Positions 3,086 to 30,408 of a stretch of 64,000 nt of DNA are shown piece by piece (positions within the stretch are counted from its first letter, which is position 1; every line of letters starts with the position of its first letter). A model generated the notes under the pieces. That model made no database searches, was not told the DNA's origin, and saw nothing but the letters and a program-made list of their open reading frames with translations. Source of the stretch: an uncultured Candidatus Saccharibacteria bacterium (lineage in GTDB: Bacteria; Patescibacteriota; JABMPQ01; JAQVVF01); NCBI GenBank assembly GCA_964574655.1, contig CAZNOH010000002.1:29620-93619 (forward strand). Direction: 5' to 3'. The translations under genes were made by a program, and so were the position numbers.

Positions 3086-4048
3086 TTTTTCTAATAAACT
3101 AATTCTGTCATATTCTTTCCTAATTTGCAACCCCTTAATGTTCTTTAGAGAGCCAGTTTTTGCAGTTCTCAAAACTCTCAAAGCTTCTTCTAAATCTAAG
3201 AAACTGATATCCTTATATTTTGCTAATTTTAATCTCAAAATTGCTCTTTGCAATGACTTTTCTAAGGCTAAAAACTCATTCAATTTTAAAGAATTTTCAT
3301 CTAGACTTAGTTCGCTTAATTTAAGTTTAGCCATCTTCTCAATATAATCACAATCATCCTTTAATGTCTTTGCGCTTTGGCAAATTGTTGATCTAAAATT
3401 TTGATTATAACCTTCTTCTAAATAAGGCACTAATTCATGCCTAATTTTATTTCTCAAATATAATTTTTGTGAATTAGATGCATCAATTCTATGCTCTAAA
3501 TGATTTTCTTTCAAATAAAGCAAAATATTTCTTTTATAACAATCTAATAAAGGCCTAATAATATTATTTTGCTGATATTTAATTCCGCTCAAGCCCTTCA
3601 ATCCTGATCCTCTCAAGAAAAACATCAAAATAGTTTCCGCATCATCATCTCTATTATGCGCAACCGCAATTTTATTAGCCTTTTCTCTAGTCGAAATTTC
3701 ATTAAAATAATTATATCTAATTTCTCGGCATTTTGCTTCCAGTCCCTTATCATCAATCTTCAAATCTTTTACTTCTTTAACATAAATTGGCAAATTATAC
3801 TGCTCCGCAAGTTTACGAGCCAAAATCATATCCAAAAAAGAATCTTTTCCTCTTAAATTATAGTTTACATGCACCAAAATCAAATCAAAACCCAATTCTT
3901 GTTTTAAATTGGCCAAAATGTGAAGAAGGCAGACAGAATCTGGTCCAGCAGACAAGCCTAATACAATTCTGTCGGAAGAGTTGATTAGATTATTATCTTT
4001 AATTGTTTTCAAAACTTGTTCTTGCATAAGTAGCAAGTATTCTAGCAT
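3080..4048 (-). CDS. tilS: tRNA(Ile)-lysidine synthetase
   Basis: PP-loop SAGPDS motif near the N-terminus; about 320 aa. Confidence 0.85.
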   Translation of the reverse strand: MLEYLLLMQEQVLKTIKDNNLINSSDRIVLGLSAGPDSVCLLHILANLKQELGFDLILVHVNYNLRGKDSFLDMILARKLAEQYNLPIYVKEVKDLKIDDKGLEAKCREIRYNYFNEISTREKANKIAVAHNRDDDAETILMFFLRGSGLKGLSGIKYQQNNIIRPLLDCYKRNILLYLKENHLEHRIDASNSQKLYLRNKIRHELVPYLEEGYNQNFRSTICQSAKTLKDDCDYIEKMAKLKLSELSLDENSLKLNEFLALEKSLQRAILRLKLAKYKDISFLDLEEALRVLRTAKTGSLKNIKGLQIRKEYDRISLLEKI

Positions 4049-4082
4049 TAATCCAAAAATTTATCAAGGTTTTACGTTTCAG

Positions 4083-4170
4083 AGCGTTGGAGCTTCGGAC
4101 CGTCAGATCGTCAGAACGTCAGAACTTCCGACGCTCCGACGCTCTGACGCTCCGAAAATCCGACGCTCTA
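4083..4170. repeat. GC-rich tandem octamer array (CCGACGCT)n with a CAGAACGTCAGA leader
   Basis: ccgacgctccgacgctctgacgctccgaaaatccgacgct. The same family occurs at 25695-25788 and 25953-26045. Confidence 0.6.
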
Positions 4171-14293: not shown

Positions 14294-14332
14294 TTTTAAT
14301 TTTGAATTTTTAATTCGCAATGAGGCCTGGAC

Positions 14333-14403
14333 CGGATTTGAACCGATGTACGCAGTTTTGCAAACTGCTGCCTAGCCACTCGGCCACCAGGCCTTGAACA
14401 AAG
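14333..14403 (-). tRNA. tRNA-Cys(GCA)
   Basis: Anticodon loop TTGCAAA and discriminator U73. Confidence 0.8.
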
Positions 14404-14418
14404 TTAACTGGGCGGTAC

Positions 14419-14491
14419 TGGGCTCGAACCAATGACCTACTCGGTGTAAACGAGTTGCTCTACCAACTGAGCTAACCGCCCAAAACCATAT
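14419..14491 (-). tRNA. tRNA-Val(TAC)
   Basis: 5' end GGGCGGTTAGCTCAGTTGGTAGAGC and anticodon loop TTTACAC. Confidence 0.85.
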
Positions 14492-14500
14492 GCCGCGGGG

Positions 14501-14582
14501 GAGACTCGAACTCCCAAGCCTTACGGCACATGCACCTCAAGCATGCCTGTATGCCAATTCCAGCACCGCGGCAAGTTTAAGT
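14501..14582 (-). tRNA. tRNA-Leu(GAG)
   Basis: Long variable arm and anticodon loop TTGAGGT. Confidence 0.8.
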
Positions 14583-14616
14583 TGTAGTCAAGAAATTAAT
14601 TAGCATTGGAGCGGGA

Positions 14617-14690
14617 TACCAGAATCGAACTGGCACCTTAACCTTGGCAAGGTTACGTACTACCACTATACTAATCCCGCGAATAGCATC
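14617..14690 (-). tRNA. tRNA-Gly(GCC) with an encoded CCA
   Basis: Acceptor stem GCGGGAT/ATCCCGC, anticodon loop TTGCCAA, and a 3' TCCA encoded in the DNA. Confidence 0.8.
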
Positions 14691-14731
14691 AACTTTTAAC
14701 CTTATGAACTTTAAGAACTTTATAACTAATC

Positions 14732-15017
14732 TGCCGGAGGGCAGAATCGGACTGCCGACACAACGGTTTTCCGTTTGGACTATATCATATTCCTAAATAA
14801 TAGGAATTTGGGCGCTTCCCATGCATTAAAATGCATAGTACTCCTGAAAAGGATAGTCTCTACACCTGCCAAGCACACAAAATGTGTGCTTGGATTGGCT
14901 CGGGATTGTCAAATAAATTATCTGATGTTCCCCGAATTCACCCAATTTGCTTAATTCATTACTGAATTAAGGGCCGAAAACCTTCAGCCGTTTGCTCTAC
15001 CACTGAGCTACTCCGGC
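14732..15017 (-). tRNA. tRNA-Phe(GAA) interrupted by a group I intron (exons 15017-14985 and 14771-14732)
   Basis: The exons join to GCCGGAGTAGCTCAGTGGTAGAGCAAACGGCT|GAAAACCGTTGTGTCGGCAGTCCGATTCTGCCCTCCGGCA. The anticodon is GAA, and the intron lies between positions 33 and 34 after U33. Confidence 0.75.
14772..14984 (-). ncRNA. group I self-splicing intron in the tRNA-Phe anticodon loop
   Basis: On the RNA strand: a P-like element aaattgggtgaattcgggg, Q aatcccgagc (P4 pairing UCGGG/CCCGA), R gtgtagagacta and S atgatatagtcc (P7 pairing GACUA/UAGUC). A U sits at the 5' splice site and a terminal G (omega G) ends the intron. A GGCC internal guide sequence can pair with the exon end GGCU. Confidence 0.75.
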
Positions 15018-21835: not shown

Positions 21836-21930
21836 AAAATCAACTTACTTCTATATTATAATACAACGTAATCAATTTAAAAACAAAAACAGCATTCAGT
21901 GCTGTTTTTTGATTTACTTATTTTTCTTAA

Positions 21931-22002
21931 GGTGGCTAAAGGGAATCGGACCCTTGTAGCTGCTGCCACAGAGCAGTGCTCTGCCATTGAGCTATAGCCA
22001 CC
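21931..22002 (-). tRNA. tRNA-His(GTG) with an encoded G-1
   Basis: Anticodon loop CTGTGGC and an extra 5' G pairing with C73. Confidence 0.8.
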
Positions 22003-26862: not shown

Positions 26863-26912
26863 ATTTAGTCTGGCAATATTAGAATGTTCCACGTGGAACA
26901 TTTCGAATCTTT

Positions 26913-26983
26913 CGGGGCATAGTATACCGGTAGTACGCGTCCTTCGGGAGGATGTAGACTGGGTTCGATTCCCAGTGCCCCGA
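26913..26983 (+). tRNA. tRNA-Pro(CGG), copy 1
   Basis: C1-G72 pair, anticodon loop TTCGGGA, T-arm CTGGGTTCGATTCCCAG. Confidence 0.75.
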
Positions 26984-26990
26984 TTCGAAT

Positions 26991-27068: not shown

Positions 27069-27076
27069 TTCACAGT

Positions 27077-27147
27077 GGGCCTATGGTATAGTGGCAGCAC
27101 GTGGCATTCGCATTGCCAAGACGGCGGTCCGATTCCGCCTAAGTACA
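27077..27147 (+). tRNA. tRNA-Ala(CGC)-like, possibly degenerate
   Basis: Anticodon arm TGGCA-TTCGCAT-TGCCA, a G3-U70 pair, T-arm GGCGGTCCGATTCCGCC. The acceptor stem has two mismatches. Confidence 0.45.
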
Positions 27148-27245
27148 TATTAACAATCAACTCCTAACAAATAGCATTTAACAAATTAAAAAAAATAAAT
27201 TCTAAATCCTAAACTCTAAATAAACTCAAAAATAAAATTCAAAAT

Positions 27246-29965: not shown

Positions 29966-30335
29966 TAAAAATCGCGAATTTACACAAATTCAGCACAAAT
30001 TTCACAAATAAAAAATGACGTTTTAACACGTCATTTTTTTATGTTTGCTAGAATTGGCTAAGGTTGGAGTGAGATTTAATGAAAAATCTTTTTAAAGATC
30101 ATTCATATAAACCTTAGCCAGTTTTAGGAAACAGTTCAGTATGTATATCTTGTCAATAGTATTAACATAATATAGCAGTATTTTGCCTTGTTTAAGGCAA
30201 ACAACGTTTAGATAATTTTGTAATATTTAAAAATAGAATACTAATCAACAATATGCTTGATTTATTTATAAAATGTATTAGAATAAGGATAACAAGTAGC
30301 TTGGAGCAATAGATCGCAAGCTCGTATCAAATTTT

Positions 30336-30406
30336 CGGGGTGTAGTATACCGGTAGTACGCGTCCTTCGGGAGGATGTAGACTGGGTTCAATTCCCAGCA
30401 CCCCGA
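30336..30406 (+). tRNA. tRNA-Pro(CGG), copy 2
   Basis: Identical to copy 1 except for compensatory acceptor-stem changes (CA/TG to TG/CA) and a G-to-A change in the T-loop. Confidence 0.75.
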
Positions 30407-30408
30407 AA

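Follow-up and report, generated by a model that had tools for sequence, protein, structure and literature searches.

A tRNA-Phe(GAA) gene with a predicted group I intron of the catalogued Phe.2Ug class in a Candidatus Saccharibacteria contig

A split tRNA-Phe(GAA) gene was identified on the minus strand (positions 14732–15017) of a stretch of contig CAZNOH010000002.1 from an uncultured Candidatus Saccharibacteria bacterium; the whole stretch of 64,000 nucleotides that was analysed is referred to here as the window. The best explanation of this locus, to which we assign a probability of roughly 0.9, is that a group I intron of the Phe.2Ug class, 214 nt long and lacking an open reading frame (ORF), interrupts the gene between U33 and G34 and is removed by the standard group I pathway. 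An earlier note on this DNA, made from the sequence alone, had proposed such an intron and implied that its occurrence at this site in tRNA-Phe was new. The observation is correct; the host gene, the insertion site and the intron family have already been described, and the class, which became public in 2020, is widespread.

The split gene and its intron

ARAGORN run in intron mode (-i) reported the genomic sequence as tRNA-Phe(gaa) i(35,214), with G1 at 15017 and A73 at 14732, exactly the boundaries that had been proposed. Joining of the two exons yields a 72-nt canonical cloverleaf tRNA-Phe(GAA), also recognized by ARAGORN in the spliced sequence, with a complete acceptor stem and all five anticodon-stem pairs. 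On the minus strand the gene reads GCCGGAGUAGCUCAGUGGUAGAGCAAACGGCU/GAAGGUUUUCGGCCC ... AUAUAGUCCAAACG/GAAAACCGUUGUGUCGGCAGUCCGAUUCUGCCCUCCGGCA, with slashes at the exon–intron boundaries. The sequence and the P1 alignment to the Rfam group I intron model RF00028 place the 32-nt 5' exon (tRNA positions 1–33) at 14986–15017, ending in ...AACGG-C32-U33, and the sequence places the 40-nt 3' exon (tRNA positions 34–73) at 14732–14771, where it opens with the anticodon GAA (14771–14769) and does not encode CCA. The intron between them (14772–14985) starts with GAAGG and ends with CAAACG, its terminal omega-G lying at 14772. The insertion point between positions 33 and 34 given in the earlier note stood, whilst its length estimate of about 213 nt gave way to 214 nt (14985–14772). 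Because GAA opens both the intron and the 3' exon, four splice registers (33/34 to 36/37) lead to one identical product, and among these only register 33/34 provides U(-1) and G(omega), with P1 placing a U.G wobble there.

In a 451-nt Rfam scan, RF00028 matched 14760–14995 (minus strand) with 70.1 bits (E 6.8e-18; gathering score 50) over positions 1–253 of the 253-position model, with a 37-nt insertion relative to the consensus between P7 and the 3' strand of P3. The assignment to group I introns was thus borne out, as were the individual sequence signals listed in support of it. The four strings proposed as P, Q, R and S correspond in the RF00028 alignment to P3-5'/P4-5', P4-3'/P6-5', J6/7 plus P7-5' and J8/7 plus P7-3', respectively, the pairings UCGGG/CCCGA of P4 and GACUA/UAGUC of P7 are present, and so are the U at -1, the 3'-terminal G of the intron and a GGCC guide facing exon GGCU. 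Folded alone, the intron has a minimum free energy (MFE) of -71 kcal/mol (z = -5.38 versus shuffles), and none of 200 shuffles was equally stable. The single-sequence MFE fold yields P2, P3, P4, P5, P6/6a, P7.1, P7.2 and P8.

The locus is easily missed. Plain ARAGORN and the Rfam tRNA model did not report the split gene, and RF00028 had no match in whole-window Rfam scans, neither at the gathering threshold nor at E <= 0.01 with laxer filters. These misses are losses in the Infernal prefilters at 64 kb; the RF00028 check that had been recommended was significant in the 451-nt scan, and a whole-window scan by itself would have given a false negative. The misses are the one observation in favour of there being no intron at all, that is, of a chance AT-rich resemblance to P, Q, R and S in which the two parts of the tRNA have nothing to do with each other or were brought together by faulty assembly, and the absence inferred from them is ruled out by the 70-bit local match. 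A chance AT-rich match, which had been named as a possible refutation, is further contradicted by the stability relative to shuffles (z = -5.4), by at least 90 same-site homologues with covariation far above controls, by the 100 % identity of the whole split gene in two independent Logan assemblies, and by a natural intron-less allele in a sister contig. We regard this alternative as refuted, with a negligible residual probability.

The elements of the intron can be followed along the minus strand. The exon strand of P1 is G30–U33 (GGCU) of the 5' exon. The first intron segment (14972–14985) comprises a P1 extension GAA (14985–14983), a loop GGUU, the guide UUUUC (14980–14976) and the P1 partner of exon GGCU, GGCC (14975–14972). 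The UUUUC guide pairs first with the P1 extension and then forms P10, in this copy with GAAAA of exon positions 34–38. The 3-nt extension is peculiar to this copy, with intron GAA pairing to the UUC that later makes P10, and accounts for the GAA repeat at the intron start. Fold and family alignment define P2 at 14951–14970 (UUAAUUCA-GUAA-UGAAUUAA). The 5' strand of P3, UUGGGUG (14939–14945), lies in the 'P' element and pairs with CGCCCAA (14808–14814), which closes the P3–P7 pseudoknot. The P4–P5 domain (14900–14935) consists of P4 5' UCGGGG (14935–14930), the P5 hairpin (14925–14909) and P4 3' UCCCGA (14905–14900), and is followed at 14864–14899 by P6 (GCC 14899–14897 with GGU 14866–14864) carrying an 11-bp P6a hairpin (CCAAGCACACA-UUU-UGUGUGCUUGG). 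The RF00028 alignment places the P7 5' strand GACUA (14854–14858) inside the 'R' element GUGUAGAGACUA, where it is expected to hold the G–C pair of the predicted guanosine-binding site. Between P7 and the 3' strand of P3, the MFE fold has two hairpins at 14821–14853, P7.1 (UCCU-UUUC-AGGA) and P7.2 (AUGCAU-UUUA-AUGCAU), and P8 (AUUCCUA-UUAUU-UAGGAAU) occupies 14789–14807. The last segment (14772–14782) holds the P7 3' strand UAGUC (14782–14778), which is the 'S' element, and a 6-nt tail, CAAACG, that runs to the omega-G. There is no P9 hairpin, CAAACG alone coming after P7; the tail AACG together with G34 is complementary to CCGUU of exon positions 39–43.

Related introns and an intron-less sister allele

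We scanned 185,579 species-representative genomes for a P7 3' strand joined to a Phe 3' exon and obtained at least 119 loci. At least 84 of them contain an entire tRNA-Phe(GAA) gene with an intron of 213–283 nt at 33/34; in all 84 parsed loci U33 is present, the intron ends in G, the acceptor stem is intact and four to five of the five anticodon-stem pairs can form. Six further loci belong to the same family and are truncated by the locus edge, giving a family total of at least 90 genomes. Record titles assign 58 of the 84 to Patescibacteria (Moranbacteria, Paceibacteria/Parcubacteria, Magasanikbacteria, Falkowbacteria, Saccharibacteria, Berkelbacteria and others), whilst the remainder have no classification or are labelled otherwise, in some cases seemingly unreliably.

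An alignment of 84 distinct tRNA-Phe intron sequences, the window included, was used to assess covariation. RNAalifold recovered P1, P2, P3, P4, P5, P6, P6a, P7.1, P8 and P9, with compensatory changes in 45 of 55 pairs. Over P1–P9 including the P7 pseudoknot, 96.2 % of cells were paired, compared with 78.7 % in column shuffles and 32–48 % with slid partners; double changes occurred in 45 of 60 pairs, and the covariation score was 0.520 against 0.181 in shuffles, with none of 500 shuffles reaching the observed value of any measure. Paired cells amounted to 99.1 % in P3, 99.8 % in P4, 99.2 % in P6, 95.0 % in P6a, 89.5 % in P8 and 99.8 % in P7. Compensatory changes were seen in four of seven P3 pairs and double changes in four of six P4 and seven of seven P2 consensus pairs, and all eight consensus pairs of P6a covary. 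P1 pairs covary likewise (A-U 68, C-G 13 and G-C 3 at one position; C-G 80 and U-A 4 at another), whereas the U.G wobble at the 5' splice site (U33.G11 in the window) is invariant in 84 of 84. For P10, exon GAAAA occurs with UUUUC, and GAAGA with UCUUC or UCUUU, and exon nucleotide 37 covaries with its P10 partner (A:U 69, G:C 13, mismatches 3).

The window sequence deviates at 11 of 100 near-invariant columns and ranks 82 of 84 for deviations. These comprise one compensatory pair in P8, whose closing pair is A-U in the window and C-G in most members, six positions in the P7.1/P7.2 subtype, two that co-change in several members, and one missing P9 loop. The two-hairpin P7.1/P7.2 arrangement is a minority subtype that was also found in L006, L015, L016, L033, L047, L059, L068, L069, L096 and L116. 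Since none of the 11 deviations falls in P3, P4, P7, J6/7 or J8/7, the ribozyme core is, as judged from its sequence, intact.

Searching metagenomes with the neighbouring L19 protein, we identified a sister contig, Ga0172379_10029570 (L122), as the nearest relative obtained; its L19 protein is 74 % identical to that of the window, with flanking genes at 78–81 % DNA identity and tRNA-Leu and tRNA-Val at 99–100 %. In L122, tRNA-Phe(GAA) is uninterrupted and matches the predicted spliced product at 70 of 72 positions, including the junction GGCU|GAAAACC; both differences lie in one acceptor-stem pair and are compensatory (G5-C68 in the window, A5-U68 in L122). Because L122 represents a natural intron-less allele with the same junction, the exon boundaries are confirmed. 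This comparison shows that intron presence differs between close relatives, and the search for relatives with and without the insert that the earlier note had suggested thus returned both, at least 90 loci with the intron and L122 without it. The tRNA cluster is also ordered differently, L19-Phe-Gly-Leu-Val-Cys in the window (14322–15017) and L19-Leu-Val-Phe-ORF-Gly-Cys in L122 (3095–4314). The pair would lend itself to work on how an ORF-less intron was recently gained or lost. In L122 a 223-aa ORF (3489–4160) with an N-terminal helix–turn–helix (HTH) lies directly after the intron-less tRNA-Phe. A LAGLIDADG homing endonuclease was suspected here but is not supported: Pfam and PHROGs give only HTH or weak DNA-binding matches, and no profile of either collection confirmed its LAGLIDADG-like stretch VAGLMLYWGEGD.

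The sister allele also bears on the idea of a dead locus, a tRNA-Phe pseudogene whose intron no longer splices and whose function is supplied by an uninterrupted copy elsewhere. Such a scenario would be compatible with the coverage of 64 kb of the genome, with a relatively divergent intron and with the C55 of the T-loop (UCCGAUU), a position that to our knowledge is almost universally U (pseudouridine 55). As a sign of a pseudogene, however, C55 was rejected: it recurs in the L122 tRNA-Phe, in tRNA-His and tRNA-Ala(CGC) of the window and in nine further distinct members of the intron family, and is a lineage trait. Both exons are intact, with their acceptor stem and anticodon-stem pairs complete and no damage to the core, and they differ from the sister's uninterrupted gene only by the compensatory pair. 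Moreover, the available tRNA-count rows in the supplementary table of Nakagawa et al. (PMC13011429) list one Phe gene per Patescibacteria genome. We therefore consider a dead locus highly improbable. No further tRNA-Phe was found in the 64-kb window by ARAGORN in plain or intron mode, making the split gene the sole one there, and splicing is for this reason very probably obligatory for a functional tRNA-Phe, as the earlier note had held.

Several other loci emerged from the scans. Three of the 119 listed loci were discarded as introns, being chance TAGTCC matches next to intact tRNA-Phe genes, and about 20 from other phyla because they consist of tRNA-Phe 3' portions alone, with no 5' half within 1.5 kb. 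These isolated portions (L005, L040, L050, L057, L061, L062, L070, L076, L082, L091, L099 and others) start from the anticodon stem and derive from metagenome-assembled genomes (MAGs) of Rokubacteria, 'delta proteobacterium', Binatia and Acidobacteria; a conserved motif, GATAGTGACACATAGTCCC, precedes several of the portions, and they look like att-site remnants of one integrative-element family targeting tRNA-Phe. In two of the listed loci, both outside Patescibacteria, ARAGORN reported tRNA-Phe(GAA) genes with introns of about 245 nt in another register, i(31,...), in L044 (Elusimicrobiota CP096137) and L058 (an Armatimonadota MAG), which may represent a second class of tRNA-Phe intron. Sixteen loci titled 'uncultured Gammaproteobacteria' or 'Bdellovibrionales' bear Patescibacteria-family tRNA-Phe introns, and the intron region of L003 ('Bdellovibrionales') is identical to that of L017 ('Parcubacteria'); these third-party MAGs are probably mislabelled as to taxon. 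A core with the P3-P4...P4'-P6 pattern of the Phe introns, GGGTGAAYTCGGGGAA...AATCCCGAGCC, was present in 33 IMG/VR viral contigs (L177–L209). ARAGORN found no tRNA gene around the core in 32 of the 33, and these cores were dismissed as information on the Phe class; they presumably reside in protein-coding genes. Three copies of the core lie within about 700 nt in L206, and in L179, which comes from a 543-kb contig, the core sits in a split tRNA-Tyr.

Known relatives, splicing pathway and 3' splice site

The implied novelty of a tRNA-Phe 33/34 intron did not survive comparison with the literature and the at least 90 public examples. Williams KP 2020 (bioRxiv 10.1101/2020.01.27.920355) extends the four classical intron-split tRNA classes to 21, and its covariance-model seed alignment includes 'Mba55.Phe.2Ug', with the same core blocks as the window. 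Table 1 of Nakagawa, Amikura, Omae and Suzuki (mSystems 2026, 11:e01536-25, PMC13011429; preprint July 2025) lists Phe (GAA) 33/34 for the complete Doudnabacteria genome GCA_016699995.1. The window intron aligns throughout with that Doudnabacteria intron (Table S3) and is identical at 158 of 233 positions (68 %). Both lie at site 33/34 of tRNA-Phe(GAA), have U(-1) and G(omega), lack an ORF and are similar in length (214 nt here, 211 nt there); the Doudnabacteria intron also lacks P9 and has a tail copying the 5' strand of the anticodon stem. The core blocks GGGUGAAYUCGGGGAA, AAUCCCGAGCC, GUAGAGACUA and AUAGUCC are common to the window and the Doudnabacteria/Phe.2Ug introns. P1 differs by a compensatory change (ACGGCU with GGCC in the window, ACGCCU with GGGC in Doudnabacteria), the region from P7 to P3-3' holds two small hairpins in the window as opposed to one GNNGG-UGAG-CCCAACAAUAA hairpin, and the 3-nt P1 extension (GAA) is a feature of the window intron, unlike that of Doudnabacteria.

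Two further groups of tRNA introns invite comparison. Hairpins P7.1 and P7.2 between P7-5' and P3-3' are a hallmark of subgroup IA in the Michel and Westhof classification. Their presence in the window, together with the statement of Nakagawa et al. that nearly all Patescibacteria tRNA introns are IA and none IC (PMC13011429), points to a probably IA-like intron. The Asn and Asp 35/36 introns of Patescibacteria, which self-splice in vitro (PMC13011429), share with the window the likely phylum, probably the IA-type core, a mostly ORF-less organization and omission by standard annotation, and the Asn intron of GCA_026016225.1 has the same P7.1/P7.2 subtype motif (GACUAUCCC...GGGAGUAC...GGAAGCGCCC). 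They differ in host tRNA, in a site inside the anticodon (35/36) and in having splicing proven experimentally. The classical IC3 introns are found in tRNA-Leu(UAA) 34/35 (Anabaena, plastids), fMet 33/34 (cyanobacteria), Ile(CAU) (Azoarcus) and Arg(CCU) 36/37 (PMC13011429). Like the window intron they are small and ORF-less, occupy an anticodon-loop site and have a P1 U.G wobble, an omega-G and P10, and the fMet intron shares the very 33/34 site of the Phe intron. They do not have P7.1/P7.2, whereas the window intron has these IA-like hairpins and no P9. In the window, P1 takes up four bases of the 5' strand of the anticodon stem. This sets it apart from the Anabaena intron, which reportedly (Zaug and colleagues, 1993) requires the exon anticodon stem to form.

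The pathway that we propose is modelled on group I introns in general and very probably operates here. rplS, the split gene and the Gly-Leu-Val-Cys tRNAs that follow it are probably transcribed together. In the precursor, exon G30–U33 and the guide GGCC would form P1, lengthened by pairing of the first three intron bases (GAA) with UUC, and the U33.G11 wobble would mark the 5' splice site. The predicted catalytic core would consist of the P3–P7 pseudoknot, the P4–P6 domain and P8, with P7.1/P7.2 as IA-type peripheral hairpins. Exogenous guanosine bound in P7 would attack after U33, P10 (exon G34–A38 GAAAA with guide UUUUC) would supplant the P1 extension, the terminal G (14772) would move into the G site, and the 3' splice site would then be attacked by the 3'-OH released on U33. 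Ligation to ...GGCU|GAAAACC... would restore a normal anticodon loop, and CCA would be added post-transcriptionally; the locus could not yield a functional tRNA-Phe unless spliced. With P9 absent, the 3' tail of the intron (AACG plus G34) probably pairs with exon 39–43 (CCGUU), in a helix that would resemble the anticodon stem and assist in presenting the 3' splice site.

This last step can be examined across the family. P9 is missing in 14 of 85 members, including the window and the published Doudnabacteria example, and in 12 of these 14 the tail is complementary to at least four of the five bases of exon 39–43. Mean complementarity was 4.36, compared with 3.64 +/- 0.16 when exons were permuted among these members, and none of 2000 permutations attained the observed mean. 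Across members the tails track the exon stem (AACGG, GACGC, CACGC, GUGGC, CAUGG, GAGGA). The P9-less tails may thus repeat the anticodon stem's 5' strand and base-pair to exon 39–43 as an RNA-only substitute for P9/P9.0 in 3' splice-site selection. We put this forward tentatively, as a possibility well short of even odds, and the tail–exon match could equally be a by-product of the mode of intron insertion or of gene conversion. We found no account of such pairing in either class-cataloguing paper, Williams 2020 or Nakagawa et al. 2026.

A number of points weigh against the preferred reading of the locus as a Phe.2Ug-class intron spliced by the standard pathway. The survey covered 64 kb of the genome, and an intact second tRNA-Phe elsewhere is possible. 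P7 (GACUA/UAGUC) is invariant in 84 of 84 sequences and so provides no covariation information, the tail–exon pairing was measured in a sample of 14 sequences, and the IA-like assignment is founded on P7.1/P7.2 and a statement about the phylum. The splicing assays of Nakagawa et al. (PMC13011429) used Asn and Asp 35/36 introns, with a cyanobacterial tRNA-Leu among the constructs, and no Phe 33/34 intron; splicing experiments on a Phe intron are reported neither there nor in Williams 2020. Finally, the lack of P9, the 6-nt tail after P7 and the position of the window among the most divergent members make reduced or cofactor-dependent activity possible.

The same features would favour a real group I intron that is not self-sufficient and needs a protein cofactor or chaperone, or unusual ions, in vivo. 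Proteins, CYT-18 and maturases among them, are required by many organellar group I introns. Against this, P9 is missing from 14 of 85 members, the published one included, and their tails track the exon, suggesting an RNA-only substitute. The core is intact, and evolution within the family has been strongly purifying and compensatory. No maturase-like ORF occurs in or beside the intron, and related Patescibacteria introns self-splice protein-free (PMC13011429). Cofactor dependence hence appears unlikely to us, and we retain an intron of the Phe.2Ug class spliced by the standard pathway as the preferred explanation.

Genomic context and significance

The window belongs to a bacterial chromosome, and its GC fraction is about 0.33. 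Among the encoded proteins are GyrA, L19, a cytidylate-kinase-like protein, an RluA-type pseudouridine synthase, SpoU, NUDIX, a PilB-like ATPase and a DinG-like helicase; a phage origin is ruled out by GyrA, L19 and the PilB-like and DinG-like proteins. The host lineage differs from Paceibacteria/Moranbacteria-type loci, with L19 and RluA about 50 % identical, and against the proteins beside tRNA-Phe in named Patescibacteria loci these two are about 48–57 % identical, which makes this phylum likely. A scan for promoters and terminators around the split tRNA-Phe gene found nothing above chance. Ribosomal protein L19 (15049–15618, minus strand) has 189 aa, of which the Pfam domain covers residues 4–114 only; the remaining K/E-rich C-terminal extension of about 75 aa is kept in L122, where the match spans residues 1–181. 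The T-loop G-U-C-C-G-A-U-U-C with C55 was found in three of the 14 window tRNAs, namely Phe (14732–14771), His (21930–22002) and Ala-CGC (27076–27148). Two tRNA-Pro(CGG) genes on the plus strand (26912–26984 and 30335–30407) lie 3.4 kb apart, each followed about 90 nt on by another tRNA, Ala-CGC and Gly-UCC respectively, and may reflect a local duplication.

As a further example of a catalogued class, with no new host gene, site or mechanism, the locus adds little scientifically. It has value for annotation: plain ARAGORN and routine Rfam searches both miss it, so that the genome would appear to be without a tRNA-Phe gene, and intron-hidden tRNA genes are a recognized annotation problem in Patescibacteria genomes (PMC13011429). 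The P9-less Phe 33/34 introns may choose their 3' splice site by means of an anticodon-stem mimic, a modest point that could be of use to specialists. If this is true, the 3' splice site and exon 34–38 would be offered to the guide inside a mimic of the anticodon stem-loop.

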